Positions 5,668 to 39,128 are shown, numbered from the stretch's first letter. The stretch is 64,000 nt of DNA from Turneriella sp. (GCA_965279515.1 CBDIID010000003.1:3904001-3968000), one strand, 5' to 3'. Notes: generated from the letters alone by a model not told the origin. Translations and numbers: made by a program.

Positions 5668-7011
<1,344 letters not shown>

Positions 7012-7018
7012 TTAGAAT

Positions 7019-7912: not shown

Positions 7913-7925
7913 ATCTTGCTTGTTT

Positions 7926-12013: not shown

Positions 12014-13261
12014 CTACTTGCCATCGTGGCGCGTTAACTTCAAAGCAATATCCGGATGAACATAAAACGGGGTCCGCCTGGTTCGAATAATATTTATTTT
12101 TATGGCCAGATCCCACCAGTCATAAATTGTCAAAGAATTTTTTGAATGTGCAGTAACTTCGATCCAATGGGCCCCATTTTCCAATATATTCGGTATGCTC
12201 CAGGTTATCTCAATGGTCTCGCCCGCTTTAACATTTGCAAGCGTCGAATCTTCTAGCTGAGTATTCGTGCCGAATAGTGGCTGCTTCAGCTCATTCTTAA
12301 TGCAGATGCCGGTTACCAATTCCGCAACCGCATGATTCGCAGCTAATTGCGCTCTCACAGTTATTATGCCACCCCGCTCCGCTGAATAAGTTGTAGCATC
12401 AGCTTCCAAAGCCGTGAATTTAACGTCTCCGTTTCCAAAACGAAATGGGTTGACTGTTTGCATATCAGGACGCTCTCCGCTTGCAGGTATGCTTGCAATT
12501 GCAGCTTCGCTGTTGCTGAATAACTTTCTATACTCACGGGCGACATCTCTCGGCATTCCTTCATGAGTAATCCTGCCTTGATCGATCAAAATAGCGCGGT
12601 CGCAGAATTGTTCGACAGCCCCCATATCATGAGTTACGAATACTACGGTTTTCCCGACGCGTTTAAGCAGCTCAAAATGGCGAAAACACTTCTGTTGAAA
12701 ATCTAAATCACCAACGGCCAAGACTTCGTCCACCAGCAGAATATCGGCATCAGTCATCGAGGCAATGGAAAAGGCCAAGCGAACCTGCATGCCCGACGAG
12801 AAGTTTTTTAGGGGTTTGTCCATATGCCCTTCTAATTCCGCAAATTTCACGATTGCTTCCATCTTGGCTGTAATGCTTGCGCGGCTGAATCCGAGCAGCG
12901 CGCCGTTCATATAAACGTTTTCATAGCCACTGAGTTCACCATGGAACCCAACCCCAAGCTCAATAAATGGGACTATCAAACCTTTTACATTCACGGAGCC
13001 TTTTGTAGGCGCGTAAATTTGAGCTATAAGTTTTAGGAGTGTACTTTTGCCGCCTCCATTACGCCCCACTATTCCAAAAAACTCTCCTTTCCGAATGTTA
13101 AGATTTATATCCTGTAATACAGTTATCGGTGTGGATTTTTTCTGCCCTAGAACCTGACTTGGATGAATAAAGAGATTCTTTAGATTACTTCCTGCAAACC
13201 GGGGGGGGCGAAAAATTTTTGTTACATTGCTGATAGAAATAGCTACTTCATATTTGAGCAT
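12014..13261 (-). CDS. wzt: Polysaccharide ABC exporter ATPase with C-terminal carbohydrate-binding domain
   Basis: GRNGGGKST, FSSGMQVRLAF, LLVDEVLAVGD, VTHD and a ~170-aa C-terminal extension; ATG at 13261 overlaps the wzm stop. Confidence 0.92.
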   Translation of the reverse strand: MLKYEVAISISNVTKIFRPPRFAGSNLKNLFIHPSQVLGQKKSTPITVLQDINLNIRKGEFFGIVGRNGGGKSTLLKLIAQIYAPTKGSVNVKGLIVPFIELGVGFHGELSGYENVYMNGALLGFSRASITAKMEAIVKFAELEGHMDKPLKNFSSGMQVRLAFSIASMTDADILLVDEVLAVGDLDFQQKCFRHFELLKRVGKTVVFVTHDMGAVEQFCDRAILIDQGRITHEGMPRDVAREYRKLFSNSEAAIASIPASGERPDMQTVNPFRFGNGDVKFTALEADATTYSAERGGIITVRAQLAANHAVAELVTGICIKNELKQPLFGTNTQLEDSTLANVKAGETIEITWSIPNILENGAHWIEVTAHSKNSLTIYDWWDLAIKINIIRTRRTPFYVHPDIALKLTRHDGK

Positions 13262-14052
13262 CAAATTCTCTCGGCAAAAAATTTTGCTGAACGCTGAAAG
13301 AAAATCAGTCCGAATATCAGAATTAAGACCGTAATGCCAATCGGAATTCCTCGCAGCCAAGGCATTTCGGGATGAAGGGTTTCAATTATTACGGTCTGTT
13401 TAGATATAAACACATATCGAAAATCCTGGATTATCTGAGCTACTGGAAAAAGAATCAAAATCTTTGCTGCCAAAGGTGGAAGAGCTAATGGCGTATACAG
13501 AATAGGCGTTCCATAAAAACCGATCTGAAGAGTTAGTTCCCAAATGGGTGAGATATCACGGAAATTAATATAGAGAACCGATAATATGGCGCCCACGCCT
13601 AAAAAGAGCGCGCATGCCTCGATAGTCAGAGGCAGAATCCAAAGCGCTTGAAGGCCGATATCTACTTGATTGACGATGGCGAAAATCAATACAACGACAA
13701 AGTTAAGTACAAAGCTAATACCTGCCGCGGCTACAACACTTGTTAACAATACCCACTTCGGAAAATTTAGCTTTCGAAGCAAGTGACCGCGCGCCGCGAT
13801 TGCCTGAAGTCCTGCTGTTGAGGCTTCCGTAAAGAAAGACCAGATTATCATCCCCAGTAAAAGATAAATCGCCGGTGAAGATACTTTTAGGTCAAATTTT
13901 AGGAATCGAACAAATACAATGTAGAGCACAACGAACATGCACAATGGCTTTAATAGCGTCCAAAAATACCCCAGCAAGGATCCATGGTATCTAAGTCTAA
14001 AATCTGTTCTAATAAACTCAGATAAGATATTTAGCGACTGCGATTTTGACAT
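13261..14052 (-). CDS. wzm: Polysaccharide ABC exporter permease
   Basis: DFRLRYHGSLLGYFWTLLKPL, FRDI, FYGTPILY motifs. Confidence 0.93.
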   Translation of the reverse strand: MSKSQSLNILSEFIRTDFRLRYHGSLLGYFWTLLKPLCMFVVLYIVFVRFLKFDLKVSSPAIYLLLGMIIWSFFTEASTAGLQAIAARGHLLRKLNFPKWVLLTSVVAAAGISFVLNFVVVLIFAIVNQVDIGLQALWILPLTIEACALFLGVGAILSVLYINFRDISPIWELTLQIGFYGTPILYTPLALPPLAAKILILFPVAQIIQDFRYVFISKQTVIIETLHPEMPWLRGIPIGITVLILIFGLIFFQRSAKFFAERI

Positions 14053-14485: not shown

Positions 14486-15262
14486 ATGCGTAGAGTAAAA
14501 AAGGCAGAATTTGTGTCCGGTCATCTCAAGAAAAATCAAAGTCATCAAAATGCCGAGAATCGTGAATATTCGGGTACCGCATTACTTTTTCAGGCCGAAG
14601 AAGACATACCAAGGTATAATCGGTGGATTGTTAAACAGGTAATTGATGCAACCGGCAAAAAGCCTGGGCTTAGGGTCTTGGACTTCGGTGCAGGAGTGGG
14701 GACTCTGAGCCAGATTTTTGCGACGCAGGCAGGAGTTACTCCCGATTGCATTGAGCTCGATCGGGAAAATCAGGCGACGATTGCCAGCCGGGGGTTTCGA
14801 TGTTATCAGGAAATCCACGAGCTTCAGGATAAATACAGCTTAGTGTACTCATCGAATGTCTTTGAGCACATACCCGACGATAGTGCCGTTGCCAATGAGC
14901 TTCGTGATCATATGCTTGATGGCGCGAAATTAGTTATCTTTGTTCCTGCATTACCACTATTATGGTCAAAAATGGATTCTCGGGTTGGCCACATTCGGAG
15001 GTACACTAAAAAATCGATGCGTCAAATGCTGGAAAAGTCCGGATTTGATGTTATTTCAATGCGTTATTGTAATTCAGTTGGTTTCGCGTTAACTTTATTG
15101 TTTAAATTGGTTGGTAGTTCAAGTGGTGAGCCTTCGCGCACAGCTCTGAGGATATTCGATAAGTTTTTGTTGCCAATTTCCAGAGTATTTGACTTTCTGT
15201 TGTTGGGTTCTTTAGGTCAAAATTTATTTGTCGTAGCAGATTTAAAACCTGATACCCGGTAA
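14486..15262 (+). CDS. Class I SAM-dependent methyltransferase
   Basis: VLDFGAGVG, SNVFEHIPDD, VPA..GHIRRY. Confidence 0.85.
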   Translation: MRRVKKAEFVSGHLKKNQSHQNAENREYSGTALLFQAEEDIPRYNRWIVKQVIDATGKKPGLRVLDFGAGVGTLSQIFATQAGVTPDCIELDRENQATIASRGFRCYQEIHELQDKYSLVYSSNVFEHIPDDSAVANELRDHMLDGAKLVIFVPALPLLWSKMDSRVGHIRRYTKKSMRQMLEKSGFDVISMRYCNSVGFALTLLFKLVGSSSGEPSRTALRIFDKFLLPISRVFDFLLLGSLGQNLFVVADLKPDTR

Positions 15263-15267
15263 AATGA

Positions 15268-16104
15268 ATGCTTAAAAAAGATATTGAATACTGGCGTGGA
15301 AAAACTGTCCTGATTACTGGCGGGTCCTCAGGTATTGGTTTGGCGCTTGCACATGAAGTCGTTGAAACTTGCGGAGCCGTTGCCATAATATCACGGAATG
15401 ATACAAGCTTGTCAAAGGCGAAGAAAATTCTTACTGGCCCGAAAAATCAGGCAAAGATCAGGTTTTATCCGTGTGATGTGGGCAGTTCAGTTCAGGTCAA
15501 GAAAATGGCCAACCGCGTATTGAAGGAAGTGGGTTGTCCAGATATAATTATCAATAATGCGGGATTTGCTCACTTTTACACTTTTGACCAAATGGATGAA
15601 AATGATATCGAAGAGACGGCGAATGTTAACTTTTCTGGCTTTCTGCGCGTTACCCGGGCATTCCTTCCAGCGATGATCACAGCAACAGCTCCGGGATGTA
15701 TTGTGAACATTGCTTCCGTGGCCGGTGCGTTCCCGATCACGCCCAATGCTGTGTACGGAGCGGCAAAAGCCGGAATGCTTGCTTTTTCTGAGCTTTTGGG
15801 CATCGAATTGGATCATTTTGGGATAAGAGTTGTCACAGTGTGCCCAGGGCGCGTAGAAACGTCTTTTTTTGACCACATCTCATACAAAAGGCGCGTTGCA
15901 GGTTCCGAGACGCAAATTGTGACTCCGATTCGCAAAGTAACCGATGGGATCATCAGGGCTGTAACTGCCCAGAAGCGAGTTGTCTTTATTCCAGGATACT
16001 GGCGATATTTTGCCTGGCTTTTATCTGTTGATAAACTTGTATTGCGACCTTTGTACCGCGCTTTTCTCAAGAAGCGTGTTGCTCGGTTAAGAAATCAGAA
16101 ATAG
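15268..16104 (+). CDS. Short-chain dehydrogenase/reductase
   Basis: TGGSSGIG, NNAG, YGAAK. Confidence 0.9.
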   Translation: MLKKDIEYWRGKTVLITGGSSGIGLALAHEVVETCGAVAIISRNDTSLSKAKKILTGPKNQAKIRFYPCDVGSSVQVKKMANRVLKEVGCPDIIINNAGFAHFYTFDQMDENDIEETANVNFSGFLRVTRAFLPAMITATAPGCIVNIASVAGAFPITPNAVYGAAKAGMLAFSELLGIELDHFGIRVVTVCPGRVETSFFDHISYKRRVAGSETQIVTPIRKVTDGIIRAVTAQKRVVFIPGYWRYFAWLLSVDKLVLRPLYRAFLKKRVARLRNQK

Positions 16105-16111
16105 GTAATAT

Positions 16112-16999
16112 ATGAATGAGAAAACCATCGTTTGCCCACTAAATGGGCTTCCAGCCCGGATTTACGTCAGAAAAGGTCGAGCAATCTATTATTTGGAGCC
16201 AAAGTCGGGTTTGATTTTTCAAGGCAATCTGCCCACCGTCAATGATATGGAGGCGTTTAATCAATCCGAATATGAGTCCGGCAGTTACAAAGCTTATGTT
16301 GAGATGGGGCATTTGAAGAAGCGGACGGCCAGAAATAGATTGGAAAAAATTCGAAAATTCGGGAAAGCTTCGGGTAATCTGCTCGATGTTGGTTGCTCTG
16401 CTGGCCTGTTTCTCGAGGTTGCTCAGGAATTCGGATTTAAGGTGCACGGCGTCGAGCTTTCCGCAAAGGCCATTGAGCTAGCGAAACCGGACATCCGGAA
16501 ATTGATTTCTAAAGCGGATGCGAATAAGCACATTAAGAAGTACGGTGCAGTGTATGATGTTGTGACGGCGTACGATATTATTGAACATACACAGGAGCCA
16601 AAAGTTTTTCTCAAGGATCTATATAATGCGTTGGCTCCCGAGGGAGTTGTAGCAATTGCAACTCCGGATTCTGGTCATTTTCTGCGTTACCTGATGCGTG
16701 GGAGCTGGTCAATGTTGCAACCGATGCAGCATACCTTTCTATTTAGCCGCCGAGGGCTTAAGTCGCTGCTAGAGGAGACCGGTTTTCAGGAAGTGCAAAT
16801 AATGTCCGCCAAAAAAACCTTAACTATTAATTATCTATTTGGTCAATTAGCGCAGACAAATCCGCTGATTTCGCGGCTATACAAAATCTTCAAGTTCCTC
16901 ATACCTTCTTTTATCGGAGATGCCATGTTCGATCTGAATATCAGCGAGTTTTTGGCGTTGGCACGAAAGGTCCCAGCAAAAACCAAGGCTTCGAAATGA
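16112..16999 (+). CDS. Class I SAM-dependent methyltransferase
   Basis: LLDVGCSAG, DIIEH, ATPD. Confidence 0.87.
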   Translation: MNEKTIVCPLNGLPARIYVRKGRAIYYLEPKSGLIFQGNLPTVNDMEAFNQSEYESGSYKAYVEMGHLKKRTARNRLEKIRKFGKASGNLLDVGCSAGLFLEVAQEFGFKVHGVELSAKAIELAKPDIRKLISKADANKHIKKYGAVYDVVTAYDIIEHTQEPKVFLKDLYNALAPEGVVAIATPDSGHFLRYLMRGSWSMLQPMQHTFLFSRRGLKSLLEETGFQEVQIMSAKKTLTINYLFGQLAQTNPLISRLYKIFKFLIPSFIGDAMFDLNISEFLALARKVPAKTKASK

Positions 17000-18432
17000 G
17001 TCCTTTACGAAACTCAAGAGTTAAAGAAAAGTCGCAGCGTGCTACCTACTCGCAAGGTGCGTGTCCGCTTTGCGGTAGCAAACATCAAGCGTATGTTTAT
17101 TCAAAAGTACATTCCCGTGTTGTCCATTGTACGAATTGCGGGTTGCTGGAAGATGTCGCTTTTGACATAAGGAATCAGCCTCAGAATCATTGGTCCCCGG
17201 AAAAGCTTGAGAAATTATCGGATCTTGTTCAGAATACTCAGGGCAATGTCACATTAATTACGACCATCCGGGGCAATAAGTCCCTCGAGCGTGTTTTTAG
17301 GCAAACTTTGCCGGCAGAGCGTCTGAATGTTGTCGACTTCGCAAAGCTAGGGTCGTTTAGGTCAAAAAATGAAAGCGTTTTTGTAGATGACCACTTACTG
17401 GATCAACCTAATCCCAGGGAAATATTAAGCAAGCTGAACCGAAACTTTCTGCCTGATCAACGCGTGGTTTTTTGCATCGAATTAATTGGCGGAAATCATG
17501 GATGGTTAAGGGAATCCTTGAAACCCAGGGAGGCTTACGCGCGTTTTTGGCCTGATTGGGTTACATTCCACAAATTGCTCTTATCCGCAGGTTTTGAGAA
17601 GGTCTGGCTAAACAACGTCCAAGAAGACCAGCACGGAACCAGTATGGCAATTGTTTCAGCCAAAAATGGAATCGCCCGAGTTCGTCCAAAACTCTCAATA
17701 GTCATGCCCGTTTTCAACGAAGCGGCAACATTTGAATCAACATTTTCCCGGGTGTTGAGTAAGAAAATTCCTGGCGCAGATAAGGAAATAATCATTGTTG
17801 AAAGTAACTCAACGGATGGAACAAAAGATCTTGTTGCGCGCGTTGCAGCAGCGCCGAATGTCAAAGTTCTTTGGCAAGAACGTCCCCGTGGCAAAGGTCA
17901 TGCAGTTCGGCAAGGTATTGAAGCATCCACAGGGAACATCATTCTGATTCAGGATGCGGACCTTGAATATGACGTTAACGATTATGATGCGCTGGTTGAA
18001 GAACTCTTATCGTGGCGCTCTACATTTGTTCTTGGCTCCAGGCATACGGGAGATTGGAAAATGAGGAAGTTTAACGATATGCCGTTCATGGCGGGGTTTT
18101 TCAACTTGGGGCACATTTTTTTCGTTTGGCTAATTAACGTCTTGATTAGGGCCAAAATGAAAGACCCGTTTACAATGTATAAGGTATTCTACAAAGATTG
18201 CATTTATGGTTTACATTTCCGGTATAATCGCTTTGATTTTGATCATGAGTTAGTAATAAAGTTGTATCGAAAGGGCTTTCATCCGCCAGAAATACCCGTT
18301 AACTATGTTGCCCGGTCGTTTTCAGAAGGGAAAAAAGTTTCATTTTTTAAAGATGGAATTTCCTGGTTGGTAAAAGATATTAAGCTGGCGACAGAATCTT
18401 TGAACTCAGCTGATCTCAGGAAAATACCATAG
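16996..18432 (+). CDS. GT2 glycosyltransferase (DPM-synthase-like) with N-terminal degenerate methyltransferase-like domain
   Basis: C-terminal LSIVMPVFNE, GKGHAVRQG, IQDADLEYD, GSR; N-terminal CPLC..CTNC. Confidence 0.85.
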   Translation: MSPLRNSRVKEKSQRATYSQGACPLCGSKHQAYVYSKVHSRVVHCTNCGLLEDVAFDIRNQPQNHWSPEKLEKLSDLVQNTQGNVTLITTIRGNKSLERVFRQTLPAERLNVVDFAKLGSFRSKNESVFVDDHLLDQPNPREILSKLNRNFLPDQRVVFCIELIGGNHGWLRESLKPREAYARFWPDWVTFHKLLLSAGFEKVWLNNVQEDQHGTSMAIVSAKNGIARVRPKLSIVMPVFNEAATFESTFSRVLSKKIPGADKEIIIVESNSTDGTKDLVARVAAAPNVKVLWQERPRGKGHAVRQGIEASTGNIILIQDADLEYDVNDYDALVEELLSWRSTFVLGSRHTGDWKMRKFNDMPFMAGFFNLGHIFFVWLINVLIRAKMKDPFTMYKVFYKDCIYGLHFRYNRFDFDHELVIKLYRKGFHPPEIPVNYVARSFSEGKKVSFFKDGISWLVKDIKLATESLNSADLRKIP

Positions 18433-18499: not shown

Positions 18500-19456
18500 A
18501 TGAAGTTCATAGTAACAGGCTGTGCCGGCTTTATCGGGAGCAACCTCACGGACCGATTGCTTGATGAAGGGCACTCTGTGGTCGGAATCGACAATTTTTC
18601 CACGGGGCAACGGGAGTTTCTTCACAAGGCACTGAAAAATTCAAAATTCTCCCTGGTTGAGGCAGATCTGCTTAATCCGGAAGTTTATGTTGATTCTTTT
18701 TCCGGCGGAGATAGGGTTTATCATCTTGCAGCGAATGCTGATGTCCGTTTTGGTACCAATCATCCAAGAAGGGACCTGGAGCAGAACACGATTGCAACTT
18801 ATAATGTTCTTGAGGCGATGCGGGCAAACGGAATTAAGCAGATTATCTTTTCATCGACCGGGTCAGTTTACGGGGAAGCTCCTGTCATACCAACGCCTGA
18901 AGATTGTCCATTTCCAATCCAAACATCACTGTATGCGGCGTCTAAACTTGCATGTGAGGGTTTGCTGGCAGCATATAGTGCAGGATTTGGATTTCAGGTT
19001 TGGATTTTTCGGTTTGTATCTATTCTTGGAGAGCGATACACGCATGGTCACGTATTTGACTTCTACAAACAACTAAAAGCAGATGGTTCCCGCTTGCGCG
19101 TGCTGGGCAATGGAAAACAAAGAAAATCTTATCTCTATATTCAGGATTGTTTGGATGCGATTCATGTCGCGGTTGAAATGGCTAAGGAAAACGTCAATAT
19201 ATTCAATCTTGGCGTTGATGGATATTGTGAAGTCAATGATTCCATTGGATGGATTTGTGGCTCGCTCGGACTAAAGCCAATTTTAGAATACACCGGGGGA
19301 GATCGCGGGTGGATCGGCGACAATCCCTTTATCTTCCTGGAGACCCGGAAAATAAAACAACTAGGATGGATACCGAAGTTATCGATTCAGGAAGGCGTCA
19401 AAAAAACCATAGATTACCTTCGCGAAAATCCATGGGTAATGGAAGCTAGGGCATGA
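18500..19456 (+). CDS. NAD-dependent NDP-sugar epimerase/dehydratase
   Basis: TGCAGFIGS, HLAA, SSTGSVYG, YAASK. Confidence 0.92.
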   Translation: MKFIVTGCAGFIGSNLTDRLLDEGHSVVGIDNFSTGQREFLHKALKNSKFSLVEADLLNPEVYVDSFSGGDRVYHLAANADVRFGTNHPRRDLEQNTIATYNVLEAMRANGIKQIIFSSTGSVYGEAPVIPTPEDCPFPIQTSLYAASKLACEGLLAAYSAGFGFQVWIFRFVSILGERYTHGHVFDFYKQLKADGSRLRVLGNGKQRKSYLYIQDCLDAIHVAVEMAKENVNIFNLGVDGYCEVNDSIGWICGSLGLKPILEYTGGDRGWIGDNPFIFLETRKIKQLGWIPKLSIQEGVKKTIDYLRENPWVMEARA

Positions 19457-20763
19457 AAATCTGCGTTCAGGGTTTGTGGCATCTCGGTACGGTAATCGTC
19501 GCGGGATCAGCCAGCCTTGGGCACGACGTAATCGGTCTGGATTTTGACGAATCGGTCATCAATAATCTGCGAAACGGTCAGGCTCCTATACACGAGCCTG
19601 GTCTAGACGACCTCCTTTTGGATGGCCTCTCCAAGAAACTAATCCATTTTACAGAAATGGCGTCAGATATTCCTGGAGATACCGATGTTCTCTGGGTTAC
19701 GTATGATACTCCCGTCGATGCAGACGACAAAGCCGATGCAGATTTTGTCTACAATCAGATAATTCAGACTTTGCCTTTCTTGCCCAATGGAGTTATTGTA
19801 ATGATCTCCTCGCAACTACCCGTTGGGTCAATTGCGCATTTGGAAGAAATCGCCCGGAAGGAATTTGCGGCGAAAGAACTCACTTTTGCGTGCTCTCCAG
19901 AAAATTTGCGATTGGGGAGGGCGCTTGATGTATTTTTACATCCGGATAGAATCGTAGTTGGCTATCGTAGTGCTAAGGACAAAGAAAAGCTGCAAAAACT
20001 CTTTCATCCATGGTCATCTCCGATCGAGTGGATGTCCGTAGAATCTGCGGAAATGACAAAGCATGCTATTAATTCATTTCTGGCGGTTTCTGTCACCTAC
20101 GCAAATGAGATTGCATCTATTTGCGAGCTCGTCGGTGCGGACGCCAAAGAGGTCGAGCGCGGTCTGAAATCGGAGCAGAGGATTGGACCAGGGGCTTACC
20201 TTTCACCGGGTGGTGCTTTTGCGGGGGGGACACTCGCCAGGGACATCGCCTTCCTGAACCAGTTAAGCCTGCGATTGGGCCTAGAATCTTCACTGCTGGC
20301 ATCAGTGCGCAAGAGTAACGAGAATCATAAGCATTGGGTAGAGCGCCGTTTGAAAGCAATTTTTCCATCTCTGCATAAATTGAAGGTTGCCGTTTGGGGA
20401 CTTACGTATAAGCCTGAAACGGACACTTTAAGGAGATCTGCGGTCGTAGAATTTTGCAGCCGGCTCATTAATGATCAGGTTCAATTGCGGGTTCATGATC
20501 CTCTTGTGAAAGAATTACCTGAGGGATGGGAAGAAAAGGTGGAACGCTATTCCGATCCGCTCGACATGCTCCGGGCTGCTGATGTTCTTATTGTTGGAAC
20601 GGCGCATTCATCATACAAGTCAATCACCCCTGAGGAAATAAAAAATGTGGCACGAGGGCTGGTAATCCTGGATCAAAACAGAATATTGAAAGATCTAATG
20701 GGTCACGTCGAGCTGCGATATTATTCCGTTGGAACCTCTCAAACTTTGGTAGGCTCGGGATGA
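19453..20763 (+). CDS. UDP-glucose/GDP-mannose dehydrogenase-family protein lacking the catalytic Cys
   Basis: Family motifs (EPGL, SPENLRLG, EMTKHAINSFLA, GLTYKPETDTLRRS) but GGTLARD in place of GGxCxxKD. Confidence 0.85.
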   Translation: MKICVQGLWHLGTVIVAGSASLGHDVIGLDFDESVINNLRNGQAPIHEPGLDDLLLDGLSKKLIHFTEMASDIPGDTDVLWVTYDTPVDADDKADADFVYNQIIQTLPFLPNGVIVMISSQLPVGSIAHLEEIARKEFAAKELTFACSPENLRLGRALDVFLHPDRIVVGYRSAKDKEKLQKLFHPWSSPIEWMSVESAEMTKHAINSFLAVSVTYANEIASICELVGADAKEVERGLKSEQRIGPGAYLSPGGAFAGGTLARDIAFLNQLSLRLGLESSLLASVRKSNENHKHWVERRLKAIFPSLHKLKVAVWGLTYKPETDTLRRSAVVEFCSRLINDQVQLRVHDPLVKELPEGWEEKVERYSDPLDMLRAADVLIVGTAHSSYKSITPEEIKNVARGLVILDQNRILKDLMGHVELRYYSVGTSQTLVGSG

Positions 20764-21635
20764 ATTATTCCCTTGAAAATAAAGTCGCTATCATAACCGG
20801 AGCCAGTCAGGGATTGGGGCTCGAAATTTCGCGGAAATACATCATGGCTGGAGCCTCTGTTATGCTTTGTGCCCGGGAGACCGGCCGACTTGAAAGAGAG
20901 GCTAGCGAACTTACGAAACTCCTTAAGCAAGGACAAACGTTAGAGGCTTTTTCCGTGGATGTGTCCTTGGAAGGTGAAGTGGGTTTGATGGTTGAAAACA
21001 TTATCAAACGCCACGGCCGGATTGATATTCTTGTCAACAATGCCGGGATTTACGGGCCTATGGGACCTATCGAATCGGTGGACTGGTTGCACTGGAAGAA
21101 GGCTATAGATGTAAATCTCTTTGGTTCCATACTGATGTGCCGGCTTGTAGTACCTTACATGAAAAAGCAAAAATCTGGAAAAATAATTCAGCTCTCCGGC
21201 GGAGGAGCCACCAATCCATTGCCAAATATCAGCGCATACGCGGTTTCCAAGGCTGCGATAGTCCGGTTTGCCGAGACCCTCGCTGAAGAATTGCGTGAAT
21301 TTGGCGTAGATGTCAATTCGATAGCACCCGGTGCCTTAAACACGCGTATGCTTGATGAAGTTCTGTCAGCAGGACCTGAAAATGTTGGTAAAAACTTCTA
21401 TGAGAAATCCGTTAAGCAAAAGCAAAATGGTGGTGCAGGACTTGAGGCTGGCGCGGAATTAGCCGTGTTTCTCGGGTCTGCCGTGAGTAACGGAATTACA
21501 GCAAAACTCATAAGTGCAGTATGGGATAATTGGCAGGAATGGCCCAAACATCTTGCAAAACTTAATAATTCAGATGCATATACCATTCGACGCATTGCGG
21601 GGCGCGAGCGGGATTTTTCGCTGGGTGACAAATGA
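20760..21635 (+). CDS. Short-chain dehydrogenase/reductase
   Basis: TGASQGLG, NNAG, YAVSK. Confidence 0.9.
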   Translation: MNYSLENKVAIITGASQGLGLEISRKYIMAGASVMLCARETGRLEREASELTKLLKQGQTLEAFSVDVSLEGEVGLMVENIIKRHGRIDILVNNAGIYGPMGPIESVDWLHWKKAIDVNLFGSILMCRLVVPYMKKQKSGKIIQLSGGGATNPLPNISAYAVSKAAIVRFAETLAEELREFGVDVNSIAPGALNTRMLDEVLSAGPENVGKNFYEKSVKQKQNGGAGLEAGAELAVFLGSAVSNGITAKLISAVWDNWQEWPKHLAKLNNSDAYTIRRIAGRERDFSLGDK

Positions 21636-22621
21636 GTCTGCGCATCGGAATCATCGGTTGTGGATTGATTGGACAAAAGCGGGCAAATTCTTTAGGGGAT
21701 ATGAGCTTAGTTGCGTGCGCTGATTTAAGCGAAGATCGAGCCAAGGCTGTCGCAAAGGGAAAAGCAAAGGTATATACCCAGTGGCGTGAGCTCCTCGCCG
21801 ATCCTCAAGTGGAGGCTGTAATAATTGCAACCCTGCACGATTCATTGGCAGAAATTACTTTGGCTGCAATTCAAAGCGGGAAGCATGTGTTGGTAGAAAA
21901 GCCAGCGGCGCGAAACTCCTCGGAATTGCTCCCAATTCTTGATGCTTTGAAAACAAGCAAAATAAAAGTCCGGGTTGGCTTTAATCATCGCTTTCATCGT
22001 GCAATGCAAGCGGCCCGGGAGCTCGTTGATTCCGGCTCGCTCGGAGAATTAATGTATATCCGGGCGCGCTACGGCCATGGAGGTCGTCCCGGCTATGATC
22101 GTGAATGGCGTGCTCAACCTAAGGTTTCAGGGGGGGGTGAATTGATCGATCAGGGACCGCATATTATAGACTTGGCCCGTTGGTTTCTGGGGGATTTTTC
22201 AGACATCAATGGATTCGCACATACTTATTTCTGGGATATGGCCGTAGATGATAACGGATTTCTGCTATTAAGAAATACAAAAAAGCAGGTGGCTTTTTTA
22301 CATGCGAGTTGCACTGAATGGAAGAACATGTTCTCCATGGAGATATACGGCAAAATCGGCAAGGTGGAAATTTCAGGACTGGGGGGAAGCTACGGTGTGG
22401 AGCGCCTTTGCTTTTACAAAATGCTGCCTGAGATGGGGCCACCTGAAACTACAATTTGGGAGTATCCGATGGCAGATAATTCCTGGGCGCTTGAACTCTC
22501 TGAGTTCGCCAGAGATATAAGTTTGAACAGAAATTCTTCGCCTGGAATCAATGATGCATATCAAACACTTAAAATAATCGAGAAGATTTATCAGGAGTCT
22601 GGCTATGATCATCGCGCGTAG
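21632..22621 (+). CDS. Gfo/Idh/MocA-family oxidoreductase
   Basis: IIGCGLIG, HVLVEKP, VGFNHRF, GGGELIDQGPH. Confidence 0.92.
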   Translation: MSLRIGIIGCGLIGQKRANSLGDMSLVACADLSEDRAKAVAKGKAKVYTQWRELLADPQVEAVIIATLHDSLAEITLAAIQSGKHVLVEKPAARNSSELLPILDALKTSKIKVRVGFNHRFHRAMQAARELVDSGSLGELMYIRARYGHGGRPGYDREWRAQPKVSGGGELIDQGPHIIDLARWFLGDFSDINGFAHTYFWDMAVDDNGFLLLRNTKKQVAFLHASCTEWKNMFSMEIYGKIGKVEISGLGGSYGVERLCFYKMLPEMGPPETTIWEYPMADNSWALELSEFARDISLNRNSSPGINDAYQTLKIIEKIYQESGYDHRA

Positions 22622-23585
22622 TCCGTTACGTATTACACTTGGCGGAGGGGGCACAGATTTACCTTCTTATTATCGCCAACATGAAGGATTTCTCATCGCG
22701 GGAGCTATTAACAAATACGTTTATGTAACTGTTATGCGCCCGTTCACCGAAGGTATCTACCTGAAGTATTCGGAGTTGGAACAAGTGGCGAAAGTGACTG
22801 ATGTCAAGCACCGAATCATCAGGGAAGCCCTGCTAATACAAAACTTGCGGACCCCCCAAATCGAAATCACAACTCTCGCAGATATTCCGGCAGGAACCGG
22901 CTTAGGGTCTTCAGGAAGTTTTACAACGGCTCTTTTGAAAGCATTATATGCACATCGGCGTCAATTATTGCATCCTAAGGAACTTGCAGAAATGGCATGT
23001 CATGTTGAAATTGACAGGCTTGGTGAACCCATCGGCAAACAGGATCAATATATTGCAGCTTATGGGGGGCTAACTTGCTTCACTTTCCACAAAGACGATA
23101 GTGTAACCGCGATACCGCTAAATATCACCATGGATACCATGCATGATCTGGAGGATAATATCCTGTTGTTTTTTACCGGTTACGCGCGCAGTGCGAGCGG
23201 AATACTCACGGATCAAAATGTTCGAACGCAGAGTAGCGATGCGGAAATGCTAAAAAATCTTCATTTTGTGAAGGAGCTCGGTTATCGCAGCTTGCATGCG
23301 TTAGAAGCGGGTGATGTCATCAAATTTGGGGAGCTAATGCATGAGCATTGGGAACATAAGAAAAGTCGATCTGGAGGGATGAGTAATCCACAAATTGATG
23401 AGTGGTACTCCCTTGGAATCAAAAGCGGCGCCGTTGGCGGAAAACTTGTAGGTGCGGGCGGCGGCGGCTTTTTAATGTTCTATGCGTCTGATCGTACTAA
23501 ACTCCGGCAAGCGATGACACGCGCTGGCCTTGAAGAGGTTCGGTTTACTTTCGATTTCGAAGGTACAAAGGTTGTATTGTCTTGA
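22605..23585 (+). CDS. hddA: GHMP sugar-phosphate 1-kinase (HddA/LmbP-like)
   Basis: PLRITLGGGGTD, PAGTGLGSSG, GKQDQY, GKLVGAGGGGF. Confidence 0.85.
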   Translation: MIIARSPLRITLGGGGTDLPSYYRQHEGFLIAGAINKYVYVTVMRPFTEGIYLKYSELEQVAKVTDVKHRIIREALLIQNLRTPQIEITTLADIPAGTGLGSSGSFTTALLKALYAHRRQLLHPKELAEMACHVEIDRLGEPIGKQDQYIAAYGGLTCFTFHKDDSVTAIPLNITMDTMHDLEDNILLFFTGYARSASGILTDQNVRTQSSDAEMLKNLHFVKELGYRSLHALEAGDVIKFGELMHEHWEHKKSRSGGMSNPQIDEWYSLGIKSGAVGGKLVGAGGGGFLMFYASDRTKLRQAMTRAGLEEVRFTFDFEGTKVVLS

Positions 23586-24289
23586 GTTTACCGGTCGCCA
23601 TTCTGGCGGGCGGGTTTGCGACCCGGTTATTGCCCATCACTGAAAAGATTCCAAAAGCGTTGGTTGACGTCGCAGGAAAGCCTTTTATCCTTCGTCAATT
23701 GGAGCACCTGCACGTCCAAGGATTGGATCGCGTCGTAATCTGCGTCAACTATCTTGGCGGACAAATTGAAGCTGCGCTCGGAGATGGCAAGGCCCTTGGC
23801 ATGGAAATTAAGTACTCATGGGATGGAGAAAATCCTTTGGGGACAGCGGGTGCTTTAAAAAAAGCGAGTCGGTTGCTTGGCGATACATTCTTCGTTTATT
23901 ATGGTGATTCCTTTTTGCCTATTGATTTTCAGGCTGTCGCGGCAGCTTTTGCCAGCTGTGGCCACCCGGCGTTGATGACCGTACTTAAGAACGAAGATAG
24001 ATGGGATAAGAGCAATGTCATATTTGTAAATGGCAAATTGATAAGTTACGATAAAAAAAATCAGGTGCCTGAAATGAAATATATTGATTACGGTCTAGGT
24101 ATAATCTCCGCTTCAATTCTAAAAGAAGTATCGGAAGATAAATCCACGGATCTTTCCGATATTTATCGTGAACTTTCTCGCGATGGACGTCTGGCCGGAT
24201 TCGAAGTTTTTGACCGATTCTATGAAATTGGATCTCACAAAGGCCTTGACGAGACGACTAGATACTTTACGAATACAGGTTTACAATGA
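23582..24289 (+). CDS. Sugar-1-phosphate nucleotidyltransferase (HddC/LmbO-like)
   Basis: ILAGGFATRL..PKAL, LGTAGAL, YGDS. Confidence 0.85.
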   Translation: MSLPVAILAGGFATRLLPITEKIPKALVDVAGKPFILRQLEHLHVQGLDRVVICVNYLGGQIEAALGDGKALGMEIKYSWDGENPLGTAGALKKASRLLGDTFFVYYGDSFLPIDFQAVAAAFASCGHPALMTVLKNEDRWDKSNVIFVNGKLISYDKKNQVPEMKYIDYGLGIISASILKEVSEDKSTDLSDIYRELSRDGRLAGFEVFDRFYEIGSHKGLDETTRYFTNTGLQ

Positions 24290-24891
24290 GCTATTCCGCA
24301 AAGCATTTGGCTGAGGCTGTAGAGATTCTTGCCAAAATTAATCCTGATGATCTGGAAAAAATGACCGATTTGTTGGTTCAAGTAAAGGCAGACGGTGGTA
24401 GAATATTTTTTCTCGGTGTAGGCGGAAGTGCCGGAAATTGCTCCCATGCGGTTAACGATTTCCGAAAAATCGTGGGAATTGAATGTTATGCCCCGACAGA
24501 TAATGTTTCCGAACTCACGGCAAGAACCAATGACGAAGGCTGGGCAACTATTTTTGTGGAATGGTTGAAGATTAGTAAGCTGACTTCGAAGGATTTGCTT
24601 TTCATTCTTTCTGTCGGTGGTGGTAGCTTGGAAAAAAATATTAGCCCAAATCTGGTTACTGCTTTGCAATATGGAAAACAACAAGGAGCAAAGATTACGG
24701 GAGTGATTGGTCGTGATGGCGGATATACAGCTACAGTAGCCGACGCATGCCTGATAATCCCGACAGTGAATCCGGAGAACATTACTCCGCATTCCGAAGC
24801 CTTTCAGGCCGTAGCATGGCATTTGCTTGTGTCACATCCGAAGCTAAAGGCTTCCGCGACTAAATGGGAATCTACAGTAAAAACTTCGTGA
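24286..24891 (+). CDS. gmhA: SIS-domain phosphosugar isomerase (GmhA-like)
   Basis: GVGGSAGNCSHAVND, TARTND, SPNL. Confidence 0.8.
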   Translation: MSYSAKHLAEAVEILAKINPDDLEKMTDLLVQVKADGGRIFFLGVGGSAGNCSHAVNDFRKIVGIECYAPTDNVSELTARTNDEGWATIFVEWLKISKLTSKDLLFILSVGGGSLEKNISPNLVTALQYGKQQGAKITGVIGRDGGYTATVADACLIIPTVNPENITPHSEAFQAVAWHLLVSHPKLKASATKWESTVKTS

Positions 24892-24901
24892 TTCGCTTTG
24901 T

Positions 24902-25447
24902 GTGATTGCTAAAGCAGTTTTTTTAGACAGGGACGGTGTTATTAACCGTGCCTTGGTTAAAGATGGCAGACCATATCCTCCCAGGGATTTGCAGGGTGTC
25001 GAAATTATCCCGGGTGTACACACTGCCTTACAGAAATTGAAGAGCCATGGATTCATTCTGATTGTGGTCACAAATCAACCCGATGTTGGCAGGGGTGTAA
25101 CGCCAATAACCTTAGTCGAAGCAATAAATAAGTATCTTGGACGGGAATTGCCAATCGATAAGTTCTTAGTGTGCTACCACGATGACGCTGATAATTGCTT
25201 ATGCCGAAAGCCAAAACCGGGAATGTTATTCGAAGCTGCCAGGGCTTTTGATATCGACTTGAATCAGTCATATTTGATCGGTGATCGCTGGAGAGATGTG
25301 GAGGCTGGGATTAATGCGGGCTGTAAGACAATATTTATTGACTACGGATACAATGAAAAACAACCCGAAAATGCGGATTTTGTAGTGAAATCGATAGATG
25401 AAGTTGTGGAGATTATTCTCAAAGGAGTGCATGATGAAGAAAATTGA
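24902..25447 (+). CDS. gmhB: HAD sugar-bisphosphate phosphatase (GmhB/LmbK-like)
   Basis: FLDRDGVIN, VTNQ, CxH..CxCRKPKPGM, IGD. Confidence 0.88.
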   Translation: MIAKAVFLDRDGVINRALVKDGRPYPPRDLQGVEIIPGVHTALQKLKSHGFILIVVTNQPDVGRGVTPITLVEAINKYLGRELPIDKFLVCYHDDADNCLCRKPKPGMLFEAARAFDIDLNQSYLIGDRWRDVEAGINAGCKTIFIDYGYNEKQPENADFVVKSIDEVVEIILKGVHDEEN

Positions 25448-26150
25448 AGATCTGAACATCAAGATATTTGCAGATGGTGCTGATAAAGAAGGGATGCTCG
25501 AAATGAACAGCAAGTCTTACATAAAAGGACTTACAACAAACCCGACTTTGATGAACAAAGCCGGCATAAAGGACTACAAAGCCTTCGCCCAAGACATACT
25601 TTCAACCATCAAGGATAAGCCTATTTCATTCGAAGTTTTTTCCGATGATTTTGCCGAAATGGAAAGACAGGCTATGGAAATAGCCGGATGGGGAAGTAAT
25701 GTTTACGTGAAAATTCCGGTAACTAATACTAAGGGCGAAACCTGCTACAGCATGGTGAAAAAACTGGCTGCAAATAAGGTAAAGTTAAATGTAACCGCCC
25801 TCATGACACTTGCCCAGGTTCGGGACGTCGTTGCTTCGTTGCAAAATGATGTACCCAGTTACGTGTCTGTTTTTGCAGGCCGCATTGCTGATACAGGCTG
25901 CGATCCGATGCCTTTGATGGCAGCCGCCGTAGAAATGCTCAAGCCAAACCGCAGTGCGGAACTTATTTGGGCAAGTCCCCGCGAACTTTTGAATATTTTT
26001 CATGCAGAAGCGATTGGGTGCCAAGTAATAACCGTGACAAATGATATTCTGAAAAAGCTGACTCTAGTCGGTTATGACTTAGGAGCATATTCCCTTGATA
26101 CTGTGAAAATGTTCTATAAAGATGCTGTGGCGGCCGGATTTAAGCTGTAA
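25434..26150 (+). CDS. tal: Transaldolase-family protein
   Basis: IFADGAD, GLTTNPTL, VYVKIP, NVT, SVFAGRIAD, WASPRE; AAGGAG RBS at ~25422. Confidence 0.9.
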   Translation: MKKIEDLNIKIFADGADKEGMLEMNSKSYIKGLTTNPTLMNKAGIKDYKAFAQDILSTIKDKPISFEVFSDDFAEMERQAMEIAGWGSNVYVKIPVTNTKGETCYSMVKKLAANKVKLNVTALMTLAQVRDVVASLQNDVPSYVSVFAGRIADTGCDPMPLMAAAVEMLKPNRSAELIWASPRELLNIFHAEAIGCQVITVTNDILKKLTLVGYDLGAYSLDTVKMFYKDAVAAGFKL

Positions 26151-26477: not shown

Positions 26478-26828
26478 GTGCAGCGTCGTCGCAGATGGTC
26501 TGTTGCAGAGAAGCTGGAGATTCTCGCCGAAGCTGAACAACCCGGAATGAGCATGTCGTATGTGGCCCGCAAACATGGCATTGCGGCAACGCAGATTTTT
26601 AAGTGGAAAAAGCTGAAAGAAGCTGGCGCTCTGGCGGCTGTCGATAGCGAAGAAGAGGTGTTGCCCGTATCTCAGGTTAAGCAACTACGCGAACGCATCC
26701 GCCGACTGGAAAACATTCTGGGCCGTAAAACCGAAGAAGTGGAAATTCTTAAGGAAGCGGTTCGTATTGGACGCGAAAAAAAACTCATCTCGCACAAGCC
26801 GTTACACGGAATCGACGGTTTCGAGTGA
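26478..26828 (+). CDS. IS3-family transposase OrfA (HTH)
   Basis: RRRRWSVAEK..VARKHGIAATQIFKW HTH plus leucine zipper; A8C slippery run at 26776-26784. Confidence 0.9.
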   Translation: MQRRRRWSVAEKLEILAEAEQPGMSMSYVARKHGIAATQIFKWKKLKEAGALAAVDSEEEVLPVSQVKQLRERIRRLENILGRKTEEVEILKEAVRIGREKKLISHKPLHGIDGFE

Positions 26829-27646
26829 GTCGGGTTGCTGATGTATTGCGCGTTGCGCGGTCGAATATCTATGAGGGCTTGAAATCCTCACGTCGGGGAC
26901 GGAAAATTGATCGTATAGTCGATGAACGAGTCCTGCCTGAAATCCGCCGGATTTGCGACGAAAGGCCAACATATGGTTACCAGCGCGTGACTCCCGTACT
27001 CAACAAAAACCTTGAAAAACAAGGATTTTCCCGCGTGAATAAGAAGCGCGTTTATCGGCTGATGAAAGAACACCAGCTGTTGCTACCGAAAAGCGCCAGC
27101 CGTCGGACGCTGGTGCATGATGGCAAGATCATCACTGCCAAAAGTGACGTGCGCTGGTGCATGGATATATTTGGAGTGCTCACCTGGAATGGGACTCACG
27201 TCTGGGTTGCATTTGTTTTGGATTGCCACGACCGCCAGATCATCAACCATTTCAGCAGTACCATCGGCATCGACGGTCTGAATATTCGTGACATGCTGCT
27301 GGGTGCTGTCGAGGAACGCTTCGGTAAGGCCGAATGTCCTCACACCATTCAACTGCTGAGTGACAATGGTCCGCAATTCACAAGCCGCGAAACAGTTCAT
27401 TTTGCATCCTCGATCGGATTTCAAGTATGCACCACGCCAGCCTACAGCCCCGAAAGCAATGGCATGGCCGAAGCATTTGTGAAAACATTCAAGCGCGATT
27501 ACGTTTACATCAATCGCCTTGAGTCCGCATGGAAAGTAATGCCGCAGATTTCGGAGTGGATGCATGACTACAACCATCATGCGCCCCATAAAGGCTTGAA
27601 GATGCGTTCACCGGTTGAATACAGGAGCTTAATGGCAGCAGGCTAA
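26825..27646 (+). CDS. IS3-family transposase OrfB (DDE), in the -1 frame relative to OrfA
   Basis: YGYQRV, WCMD, LSDNGPQF, SPESNGMAEAFVKTFK, YNHHAPH. Confidence 0.92.
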   Translation: MSRVADVLRVARSNIYEGLKSSRRGRKIDRIVDERVLPEIRRICDERPTYGYQRVTPVLNKNLEKQGFSRVNKKRVYRLMKEHQLLLPKSASRRTLVHDGKIITAKSDVRWCMDIFGVLTWNGTHVWVAFVLDCHDRQIINHFSSTIGIDGLNIRDMLLGAVEERFGKAECPHTIQLLSDNGPQFTSRETVHFASSIGFQVCTTPAYSPESNGMAEAFVKTFKRDYVYINRLESAWKVMPQISEWMHDYNHHAPHKGLKMRSPVEYRSLMAAG

Positions 27647-27733: not shown

Positions 27734-29470
27734 TCAAGGAGTATCCGATCTCTCTGCCTTTCTTGTCGGTTGTTCACAGGTTGGCGCAATTGCTTTGTTT
27801 GGACATGCTGAAAATTTCAAGTTCGGCAATCCCGTGCCGCAATATCCCGTGAAGAGGGCATATATTTCATAGTCTACAGGTTTGTCACAGGCTGCAACAT
27901 TAAAGGTGATGGCGTCGCCTTTTAGGTTAAAGGCGCCACTTTCATATTTTCGCGTGCCGCAGTCATATTTAATAATATTGTCATCGAATGGCCTCTTTAG
28001 CGGTTGATTTCGCACATCCGTAAAGCTGATTTTTACTTCACATTGTCCATTGATGCATTTAGCATTCGTCGTAGGTTTAGGATTCAGGTGCCTGCTAGTC
28101 AGTTCAAACCAGTTATATTTTGGTATCAGCCATTGTCCGACGCCAATCGCTAGCGTACTTATGCCTACCAAAGGTATAAGCCAAGCCAAGCGTTTTTTCT
28201 TGAATGCCTGGGCAACGAATTGCAACAGACCAGGACCAGTGGCGATGGTGAGTAATAGCGTTGCGAGAATGAATTCTCTGGTCAGCCCATATTTGTTATG
28301 GGTACCACCCCAAACGGCGGTTGCATTGTAACCCAGAGTTATTGTCAAAAATGATCCAACCCCTATCAGGAATGCGAAACCAACCATTGGCGAATCAGTA
28401 CGCCAATCTCTTTTCAAAAAGATTCCAGTAAAGGAGGCAAAGAGCGTGAGCGGAATAATGTAGAAAAGAATCGGCAACTGCATAAGCAACGGCATATAGA
28501 AATCGGACCTTGAAAAACCACCCAGAATGATGCGTCGAAAGGAGTACTCGTTGCCGTAGCTATAGTAATTAGGGTCGACAAACGTTTGTATTAAATGCAA
28601 CGGAATCATCTTCGGATTGAGACTCATGTATTCTCTGATATAAGTGTCCTGTGATCGCAATTGGCTATAGTGCCCATTCATCGGCATTCCGTTAGAAAAA
28701 TAATAAATAAAAGCAACCGCAAAAATAGCTCCGGAAATGGAAGCTGTTATGCGTTTCAGCAATAGAGCAAAATCAATTTTGTTTTTCTTCAAAAACAAGT
28801 AATGGCCAAACATGATTGCGGTTGCAACAGCACAGGCTAAGAAAACGGCCATGGCCTCATGACGGCGAACATTAGCGAATAAAATTCCAGAAAAAGCCGC
28901 CGCGAAATACCACAGGAGCCGGTTATTGCACATAGCCTCTATGAACGAAAATACGAAAGCAACTCCGCAGAAAGCAGCAGCGTAATGCGACCAGGGGATG
29001 TAGTTAAAACGCAAGATGGTGCTAAGCTGATACATAATAATCCATAGCAAAACAGAGAAAAACGCCAATGAGAGTTTGTTTTTTACTGGGTTCAGTACCA
29101 TTCCCACTCGAAACATAAGCAATACTGAGAGCAGGGCTGCAGCCATGGCGTAAGCCATGCCGTGATAGGCGAAAGATGCGTCCACTGACGGTGTATACCA
29201 CACGCCGGATAATTTGTGGTAAAATCCGATCAGAGATAAATAGCCTGTTGCCATATATCCGCTTCGCACGGAGTCAGGCACTTCACCTGCCATAGCCGCT
29301 TTAAAGGCCATATATATCTCGCCCTGATCGTCACGATTGCTAAATGTTGCACTGTTTTGGGTCAGATTATGTTTAGCGCCGGCAAAATTGTCCTGAAAAA
29401 CAAAATAGCAGGGTAAAATCAGGCAAATTACAATTAACAACACCTTCAGCGATTTCAGCATAGAAGTCAT
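27734..29470 (-). CDS. Polytopic membrane protein (possible GT-C-type transferase); start uncertain
   Basis: About 11 TM helices, acidic RDDQGE in the first loop, Cys-rich soluble C-terminus. Confidence 0.6.
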   Translation of the reverse strand: MTSMLKSLKVLLIVICLILPCYFVFQDNFAGAKHNLTQNSATFSNRDDQGEIYMAFKAAMAGEVPDSVRSGYMATGYLSLIGFYHKLSGVWYTPSVDASFAYHGMAYAMAAALLSVLLMFRVGMVLNPVKNKLSLAFFSVLLWIIMYQLSTILRFNYIPWSHYAAAFCGVAFVFSFIEAMCNNRLLWYFAAAFSGILFANVRRHEAMAVFLACAVATAIMFGHYLFLKKNKIDFALLLKRITASISGAIFAVAFIYYFSNGMPMNGHYSQLRSQDTYIREYMSLNPKMIPLHLIQTFVDPNYYSYGNEYSFRRIILGGFSRSDFYMPLLMQLPILFYIIPLTLFASFTGIFLKRDWRTDSPMVGFAFLIGVGSFLTITLGYNATAVWGGTHNKYGLTREFILATLLLTIATGPGLLQFVAQAFKKKRLAWLIPLVGISTLAIGVGQWLIPKYNWFELTSRHLNPKPTTNAKCINGQCEVKISFTDVRNQPLKRPFDDNIIKYDCGTRKYESGAFNLKGDAITFNVAACDKPVDYEIYALFTGYCGTGLPNLKFSACPNKAIAPTCEQPTRKAERSDTP

Positions 29471-29695
29471 TGACCGATTGTGCACCATCGACTTGCCGAG
29501 AAGAAGAATTTGACTTTGGATATGGAATATCGCGTGTTTGGCAACAATTAACTGAACAGCCGGCCCGAAACTGGAAATGTTTACGAATTGCAAAACAGCC
29601 AAAAATCGCCGGCGCTAAACCGTCATCGCCATTAAAAAAGTGCATGCAAATTGCCAGGCAATTTCCACTCACTTTAAAAGCCTGGTTAAGAAATT

Positions 29696-31215: not shown

Positions 31216-31287
31216 CAAACTCCTTTTGCTCTTTGAGACTCGAAGTCCCAAATCTATTCACGATGGAAAGCAGCAACGCGCTGAATA

Positions 31288-33162: not shown

Positions 33163-33194
33163 ACAGAATGAATCAAACACCAATTCGTGCAATA

Positions 33195-38489: not shown

Positions 38490-38520
38490 CGTGGCGTATC
38501 CGAACAGGGGCAGCAATTCA

Positions 38521-39027: not shown

Positions 39028-39102
39028 AGTAATATCTCAGCTCAACAGGCGAATATTAAAATCCCAATAAAGACTAAATTTATTGGGCGGCTGTCAACCA
39101 AA

Positions 39103-39128
39103 ATTACCAATATAGATTACCAATATAG
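39103..39128. repeat. 13-bp tandem duplication ATTACCAATATAG x2
   Basis: Read directly at 39103-39115 and 39116-39128, in a divergent intergenic region. Confidence 0.9.

Follow-up and report, generated by a model that had tools for sequence, protein, structure and literature searches.

A conserved nine-gene cassette in a Turneriella glycan locus, related to lincosamide sugar genes and a candidate route to a GDP-8-deoxy-octose

In the literature searched, GDP-octose chemistry is known only from the lincosamide antibiotics. According to the sections of the sources consulted, LmbR forms an octulose from fructose-6-P or sedoheptulose-7-P and ribose-5-P (PMC5854111, PMC7014725), the K, L, M, N, Z, P, O and S proteins are listed as C8 enzymes (PMC4351081, Table 2), and M, L, Z and S turn GDP-octose into GDP-lincosamide (PMC12945683). 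A second described system, GDP-manno-heptose synthesis by GmhA, HddA, GmhB and HddC, uses the same logic of isomerase, anomeric kinase, phosphatase and nucleotidyltransferase, and it also occurs in surface-glycan loci. Here we describe nine genes in a 64,000-nucleotide stretch of Turneriella sp. DNA (GCA_965279515.1 CBDIID010000003.1:3904001-3968000, hereafter the window). They make up a single conserved and mobile cassette with kinship to the genes for the lincosamide sugar. With a probability of roughly 0.6, we consider that the cassette makes a neutral GDP-8-deoxy-octose which reaches a surface glycan via a polyprenyl carrier. No description of such a cassette, or of a straight-chain surface-glycan octose, was found in the literature searched, which included few subscription papers and no supplements.

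Nine open reading frames (ORFs) without internal stops were found at 18500–26150, all on the plus strand. Their families were assigned by Pfam and NCBIfam, including those of the short-chain dehydrogenase/reductases (SDRs) and UDP-glucose dehydrogenases (UGDHs), as follows (percentages are identities).

18500..19456, plus strand: nucleoside diphosphate (NDP)-sugar epimerase, CcbM/LmbM-like (38% to CcbM; tree)
19453..20763, plus strand: protein of UGDH fold that lacks the catalytic Cys and has a changed NAD motif, CcbL/LmbL-like (36% to CcbL; tree)
20760..21635, plus strand: classical SDR of a cassette-specific family (Pfam adh_short)
21632..22621, plus strand: Gfo/Idh/MocA oxidoreductase, CcbZ/LmbZ-like (33% to CcbZ; tree)
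22605..23585, plus strand: GHMP anomeric sugar-phosphate kinase (in a clade of its own, outside HddA and not clearly with CcbP)
23582..24289, plus strand: nucleotidyltransferase (NTP transferase), CcbO/LmbO-like (33% to CcbO; tree)
24286..24891, plus strand: SIS ketose-aldose isomerase, CcbN/LmbN-like (tree; shared insertion)
24902..25447, plus strand: HAD-IIIA sugar-bisphosphate phosphatase, CcbK/GmhB superfamily (family; BLAST rows)
25434..26150, plus strand: transaldolase of the TIGR02134 family, second copy in the genome (model score; tree)

For the transaldolase, the first ATG is at 25398, but the start at 25434 agrees with the homologues. At seven of the eight junctions the genes overlap, in five cases by 4 nt and in the other two by 17 nt and 14 nt, and the single gap is 10 nt; the nine genes are intact and tightly coupled. 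Order, families and overlaps all agree with an earlier note on this DNA, which had read nine mostly overlapping genes here. The GC content of the block is 45.9%, compared with 44.7% for the surrounding glycan locus and 53.1% for the chromosome. Promoter-like sites (32, against 21.8 ± 4.6 in shuffled sequences) and terminator-like sites (19, against 15.0 ± 4.3) were counted and not used.

A scan with the UGDH-like protein of the window returned 224 relatives, of which the best 80 were kept. All 51 relatives at ≥40% identity lay amid other cassette genes, and the 29 at 29–33% had neighbours without SDR, Gfo, kinase, transferase, SIS, HAD or transaldolase. The 51 loci and four others (L084, L085, L141 and L218) made up the cassette set of 55 loci. 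All nine genes were present in 39 of these; where the locus was ≥20 kb (32 cases), 26 were complete. The gene order of the window was kept in 30 of the 39 complete loci. The survey of synteny which the earlier note had proposed thus revealed a conserved unit, and because all nine genes recur in so many loci, their association in the window is not due to chance. By record title, the loci come from about 11 bacterial phyla and from a single archaeal bin, putatively Methanospirillum, and the cultured, non-pathogenic carriers include Rhizobium jaguaris, Bradyrhizobium and Paraburkholderia. Among 8,000 protein clusters scored with the UGDH-like query, at least 7,692 matched at E 1e-80 or better; ordinary UGDHs score lower. 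No cassette-type dehydrogenase-like gene was found in 40 relatives of the host genome, where no match exceeded 34% identity; therefore the block was probably acquired laterally.

For comparison, the celesticetin (Ccb) proteins stood in for the Lmb proteins throughout. When 401 genomes from a single large genus of actinomycetes were searched for the kinase, 14 matches resulted, six of them with the K-L-M-N-Z-P-O-S-R set, and one locus (L134) was recognised as the celesticetin cluster by its CcbD and CcbF, which are identical to PDB chains. Another locus (L127) was suspected to be the lmb cluster and turned out not to be; a transaldolase gene on a Streptomyces plasmid (L083) was rejected as part of a lincosamide cluster because it stands alone. 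Trees were made with IQ-TREE (LG+G4) from subsamples of 26–51 rows, each with 9–17 cassette loci, 4–6 Ccb-type loci and controls; support is given as bootstrap/SH-aLRT.

Six of the nine proteins grouped with their Ccb counterparts. The UGDH-like protein formed a clade with CcbL (100/100) against 17 UGDHs, and the Gfo protein one with CcbZ (98/99, with shared motifs) against 16 other Gfo proteins. The isomerase grouped with CcbN (100/97) apart from GmhA, the nucleotidyltransferase with CcbO (98/94, in a clade including L131 and one partial cassette) apart from HddC-type enzymes, and the transaldolase with CcbR against eight TalC/FSA rows (100/99, and 100/100 under a mixture model, with long branches). 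The epimerase clade with CcbM (100/100) also held six epimerases from other kinase loci and was separate from GalE, RmlB, Gmd, Fcl and HldD. The phosphatase tree lacked resolution, but the top five of 20 BLAST rows were K-type genes of Ccb-type clusters (37–39%). The earlier statement that eight of the nine genes match the Lmb set by family was thus borne out in trees against Ccb and Gmh/Hdd proteins for L, Z, N, O and M and, less certainly, for R; the kinase joined neither group.

Derived motifs in L, Z and N were common to the cassette and Ccb proteins. The isomerase has an SV(G/H)GG insertion in common with CcbN. It carries H-x3-D where GmhA has H-x3-E, and E..Q instead of the Q..H of GmhA, residues with known metal-binding or catalytic roles in that enzyme, and it reached 46 bits against the NCBIfam gmhA model (cut-off 209). 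A 4-residue insertion was shared by the cassette transaldolase and CcbR. By PDB matches alone, the nearest solved relatives of the epimerase are the archaeal GDP-sugar 4-epimerases PhGal4E_1 (8RDG) and 3EHE, with E values of 3e-72 and 1.5e-85; those of UDP-type enzymes were 1e-42 or weaker. In the part of the source consulted, PhGal4E_1-type enzymes are described as preferring GDP-sugars, their substrates being hexoses (PMC12171764). The cassette nucleotidyltransferase is predicted to make a GDP-sugar.

The UGDH-like protein was examined in relation to Ugd, BceC and TuaD, with which it shares three Pfam domains and the fold (predicted structure with pLDDT 91.9; TM 0.91 to BceC). The positions of the catalytic Lys, Asn and Asp of UGDH are retained, but the catalytic Cys and the GxGxxG NAD motif are both absent. 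As the earlier note had it, the protein is a Cys-less homologue: the motif GGTLARD replaces GSCFPKD. Besides the change of Cys to Thr, GxGYVG is replaced by GxWHLG, KST by SSQ and PEF by PEN, which puts a Trp into the glycine-rich NAD loop; five substitutions, in the GxWHL, SQ, PENL, KH and TLxRD motifs, are common to the window protein and CcbL. Of 54 ORFs of the UGDH family in cassette loci, 53 have the change to Thr, as do all six of the Ccb-type clusters, whereas Cys was retained in 39 of 39 others. All of the 119 best non-self database matches have GGTLARD, and thus no Cys. An ordinary UGDH was ruled out by these losses and by the CcbL clade, although databases annotate the cassette-type family as UDP-glucose 6-dehydrogenase. 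Judged by the residue roles in UGDH, the protein should not make a uronate by four-electron oxidation, and its NAD binding may be abnormal. The lost Cys and the altered NAD loop would suit an eliminating enzyme, the redox steps being left to the Gfo protein; by analogy with the lincosamide pair, the UGDH-like protein is likely the elimination (dehydratase) partner. Across the cassette, the motifs that these two proteins have in common with CcbL and CcbZ, respectively, are invariant.

The lincosamide pathway has the S aminotransferase where the cassette has an SDR. In all 55 loci, rearranged ones included, the cassette gene that follows the L-like gene is that of the SDR, and residues S146, Y160 and K164 are invariant in 43 rows. 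The SDR forms a clade of its own (98/96), and its best PDB matches are generic SDRs, with no characterised close relative. CcbS-like matches of ≥120 bits were found in none of the 55 cassette loci, compared with six of six Ccb-type clusters; weaker DegT matches occurred in five. These results agree with the earlier proposal that an SDR stands in the place of LmbS, and the SDR is likely a ketoreductase which substitutes for the aminotransferase.

The transaldolase scored 335 bits against TIGR02134 (cut-off 282) and has the Schiff-base Lys, Glu and Phe. A housekeeping role for this copy was rejected. The genome has a separate TalC, and in that sense the gene can be called dedicated, as it had been; a second transaldolase was also present in four of five other cassette genomes checked. 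Transaldolase genes occurred in 45 of the 55 cassette loci, in none of the 20 canonical HddA loci, each covered to about 8 kb on either side, and in none of 31 other kinase loci, a group that excludes two partial cassettes (L146 and L230) with both a transaldolase and a CcbN-type isomerase. Since TalC, GmhA (43% to E. coli), GmhB-like, HldD and WaaF-like genes are present elsewhere in the host genome, the block is not needed for ordinary heptose.

Taken against the described systems, the cassette has eight of nine families in common with the lincosamide pathway. Its kinase comes from another clade, the active-site residues of its transaldolase differ from those of CcbR, its gene order is different, and it is spread over many phyla with glycan genes as neighbours. 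The lincosamide genes for the carrier-protein domain, thiol transfer and amide condensation are absent beside it; homologues of CcbD, E, F, T, V and Q were not found in the whole genome either (tblastn, E 1e-4), in line with the earlier remark that propylproline and thiol-transfer genes are missing. The cassette appears to work like the lincosamide sugar pathway and to share ancestry with most of it, but it does not belong to that pathway, for it lacks the aminotransferase and every condensation gene. With regard to GDP-manno-heptose, all four corresponding cassette enzymes were below the NCBIfam cut-offs (that of HddA is missed even by canonical-looking kinases, the best reaching 440 of 600), the isomerase, kinase and transferase fell outside the GmhA, HddA and HddC clades, and none of the 20 HddA loci had a transaldolase, L-like or Z-like gene. 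Ordinary GDP-manno-heptose synthesis was rejected on the basis of these clades, and an antibiotic cluster on the basis of the missing Ccb homologues and the glycan-gene neighbours.

Following the Ccb/Lmb precedent, the transaldolase would join the C3 unit of fructose-6-P to ribose-5-P, giving octulose-8-P, which the SIS protein would convert to a gluco-configured octose-8-P. The kinase, phosphatase and nucleotidyltransferase would then yield GDP-octose, and the epimerase would invert C6 and/or C4. The Gfo protein would oxidise C6, the Cys-less UGDH-fold protein would eliminate the C8 hydroxyl, and re-reduction at C7 would leave a 6-keto-8-deoxy sugar. From gene context, the SDR would reduce the 6-ketone where CcbS aminates, so that the product would be the 6-hydroxy analogue of the lincosamide; a GT2 glycosyltransferase would load it on polyprenyl phosphate, and a GT-C-type membrane enzyme would transfer it outside the membrane. 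Because a terminal hydroxyl can be eliminated from the position beta to a C6 ketone only if there is a C8, the retention of both L and Z favours an octose. The terminal-deoxy heptose which the earlier note had offered as an alternative would be chemically unlikely by this route, since a C8 leaving group would be needed.

Several observations weigh against the octose. The identities between the window proteins and their Ccb counterparts are low (29–38%), and the joint 6,8-dehydration by LmbL and LmbZ and the order of the late steps enter the pathway as general background. In BLAST searches, housekeeping GmhA was slightly ahead of the cassette isomerase with CcbN, and housekeeping TalC slightly ahead of the cassette transaldolase with CcbR, the cassette branches being long in both cases; in the reciprocal searches suggested earlier, these two were thus not reciprocal best matches. 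The kinase, besides standing in its own clade, scored higher against HddA-type kinases. The cassette transaldolase has Glu and Phe in the active site as ordinary transaldolases do, where CcbR has Gln and Leu-Trp, so the acceptor preference of LmbR is not transferable to it. Its family also occurs outside the cassette (L083, L086 and L294), in one case beside two heptosyltransferase-like genes in a lipopolysaccharide (LPS)-type locus (L291 6398–10462, genome G868). The UGDH-like gene is missing from the cassette in two genomes (L292 and L293), and the window holds GT1/GT2 genes and an ABC exporter as other possible destinations of the sugar.

The strongest of the alternatives, in our estimate an unlikely one, is an unusual heptose. 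Here, the transaldolase would boost sedoheptulose-7-P, the CcbN-type isomerase would give gluco- and not manno-heptose, and the epimerase, Gfo protein, SDR and UGDH-like protein would invert or modify C4 and C6. What sustains this reading is the ordinary look of the transaldolase, whose family is also found alone or beside heptosyltransferases; in its favour are also the BLAST scores of the kinase, the membership of enzymes from transaldolase-free kinase loci in the epimerase clade, and the UGDH-less variant, in which the Gfo protein and SDR might be an epimerising pair. However, the absence of transaldolase genes from the GDP-heptose and other kinase loci argues against it, as do the TalC and GmhA genes already present in the genome and the joint retention of L and Z in the full cassette, whose chemistry in lincosamides would require a C8 hydroxyl. 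In an approximately unbiased (AU) test, union of the kinase with HddA was rejected (p-AU 1e-32); union with CcbP was not (p-AU 0.065).

Less likely again is a sugar of C8 or longer made by a different back half of the pathway, in which C8 is not deoxygenated, another carbon or nucleotide is involved, or the SDR acts elsewhere, the product being a fully hydroxylated or otherwise modified octose. That the SDR has no characterised close relative, that the nucleotide is deduced and that a UGDH-less variant exists would allow this. The variant (L292 2442–10290 in genome G1378, and L293 in G1371) has the order GT2-GtrA-EPI-SDR-GFO-KIN-NTT-SIS-HAD-TAL, and a cassette-type UGDH-like gene was not found elsewhere in the two genomes (94–95% complete) either. 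Its Gfo protein is kept, and its SDR has diverged to 30–33%, yet it falls in the same clade as the cassette SDR. Deoxygenation is therefore not obligatory, which suggests that the Gfo protein and SDR are able to act without the UGDH-like protein and that deoxygenation is an optional module. On the other side, the motifs shared with CcbL and CcbZ do not vary across the cassette, and the SDR is tied to the UGDH-like gene in every cassette locus and diverged where that gene is missing. A small secreted lincosamide-like metabolite, or ordinary GDP-manno-heptose synthesis with unrelated passengers, is very improbable: the homology to antibiotic genes, the Ccb-type sugar blocks in four Streptomyces-like clusters and the sub-threshold matches to all four heptose families are outweighed by the missing CcbD/E/F/T/V/Q homologues, the glycosyltransferase, GtrA and Wzm/Wzt neighbours, the isomerase without the GmhA motif and apart from GmhA, and the joint travel of the nine genes.

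For the preferred reading, a GDP-8-deoxy-octose bound for a surface glycan, the destination was considered from the genes around the cassette in the window.

12014..14052, minus strand: Wzm/Wzt ABC polysaccharide exporter (ABC2_membrane, ABC_tran, Wzt_C)
14486-15262 and 16112-16999, plus strand: S-adenosylmethionine (SAM) methyltransferases (family match)
15268-16104, plus strand: second SDR (family match)
16996..18432, plus strand: polyprenyl-phosphate glycosyltransferase-type GT2 with an additional N-terminal region (PF00535; AglJ-like below cut-off)
26478..27646, plus strand: IS3-family transposase pair directly 3' of the cassette (single copy in the genome)
27734..29602, minus strand: multi-pass membrane protein, GT-C-like as a lead only (about 10 hydrophobic segments, no Pfam match)
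31288..33192, minus strand: multi-pass membrane protein, YfhO/GT-C-like as a lead only (atlas score 0.98–0.99; about 9 hydrophobic segments)

The GT2 is a candidate acceptor of the NDP-sugar. The genes at 14486..16999, which are syntenic as a whole set in another locus (L014), are probably in the same operon as the cassette and possibly serve in tailoring. The protein at 27734..29602 had an atlas score of 0.95 to GT39/PMT_2-like clusters (136–141 of 256 features). In the three-component glycosylation scheme, a DPM1/GtrB-like GT2, a GtrA-like flippase and a GT-C enzyme work together; similar proteins adjoin the cassettes, but the donor would be a higher-carbon sugar and the GT-C partners vary. 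A lipid-carrier-type GT2 was found beside 36 of the 55 cassette loci, compared with none of 20 HddA loci, five of 31 other kinase loci and none of 29 UGDH loci. The window-type GT2 family was beside 15 and a second, GtrB-like family beside 22 of the 55, GtrA-like genes beside nine, and two methyltransferase families beside 12 and 11. No GtrA match was found among the window proteins scanned, in which the GT2 and the two GT-C-like leads are present. From this context, the sugar most likely travels on a lipid carrier to a surface glycan, though it might instead be used directly in the ABC-exported polysaccharide. The neighbours of the GT2, GtrA and GT-C-like types, together with the missing condensation and thiol genes, support the earlier view of a surface glycan rather than an antibiotic.

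Other sugar genes were also observed in the window. A DegT-family aminotransferase gene (29696–31251, minus strand; 33% to CcbS) lies 3.5 kb from the cassette on the opposite strand and is accompanied by a 149-aa ORF without a Pfam match. Together with the gmd gene at 6031 it is perhaps for perosamine synthesis; in principle, the enzyme could act on the keto sugar of the cassette in the host genome. The stretches 6031–9170 and 35049–46113 encode Gmd and a second extended SDR (likely for GDP-D-rhamnose), a sugar C-methyltransferase, a 1,155-aa triple glycosyltransferase, a Cys-containing canonical UGDH and PEP carboxykinase.

Related loci were noted elsewhere. Partial cassettes in genomes G189 (L146) and G759 (L230) have the transaldolase, CcbN-type isomerase, kinase, phosphatase, transferase and a different epimerase, and lack L-like, Gfo and SDR genes. 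In an actinobacterial cassette with an SDR (L141, genome G192), the transaldolase branches outside both TIGR02134 and CcbR and the L-like protein leans to CcbL (90/80), and this locus may stand midway from the cassette to the antibiotic genes. On plasmid 3 of Lawsonia intracellularis (L084), a full but rearranged cassette lies alongside genes for a GT2, for a membrane protein of the LPG-synthase type and for two proteins of 1,090 aa that match no Pfam family. Kinase loci with a CcbM-clade epimerase and no transaldolase (L153, L219, L226, L131 and L142), many Rhizobium plasmids among them, may represent another uncharacterised higher-sugar route, to judge from their genes. When genomes of two phyla were sampled, the TIGR02134-type family turned up in 5 of 301 and in 4 of 151; one phylum sample gave none among 151, but there the positive control was silent and the result is uninformative. 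The LPS-type locus L291 also holds a Gfo and a DegT aminotransferase gene. Four Streptomyces-like clusters (L137–L140, in genomes G358, G456, G623 and G427) carry a complete K-L-M-N-Z-P-O-S-R sugar block. That of L138 has as neighbours an ABC exporter gene, a glycosyltransferase-like ORF and a tRNA-synthetase-like ORF, which are not lincosamide condensation genes, and further genes which resemble a 3-amino-5-hydroxybenzoic acid (AHBA) set; this cluster is possibly for an amino-octose natural product of another class.

More broadly, and only tentatively, thousands of bacteria and some archaea may carry on their surfaces a straight-chain 8-deoxy-octose made by this cassette, with a UGDH relative as dehydratase subunit and the lincomycin and celesticetin genes as an offshoot in which an aminotransferase took the place of the reductase. 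The cassette variant without the dehydratase-like gene offers a natural control for the dehydration step. If the reading is true, it would correct a large mis-annotation of UGDH, offer a source for the sugar genes of the antibiotic and provide nine small soluble enzymes for C8 sugar synthesis, and it would add to bacterial glycobiology a new monosaccharide from the surface-glycan loci of many phyla.

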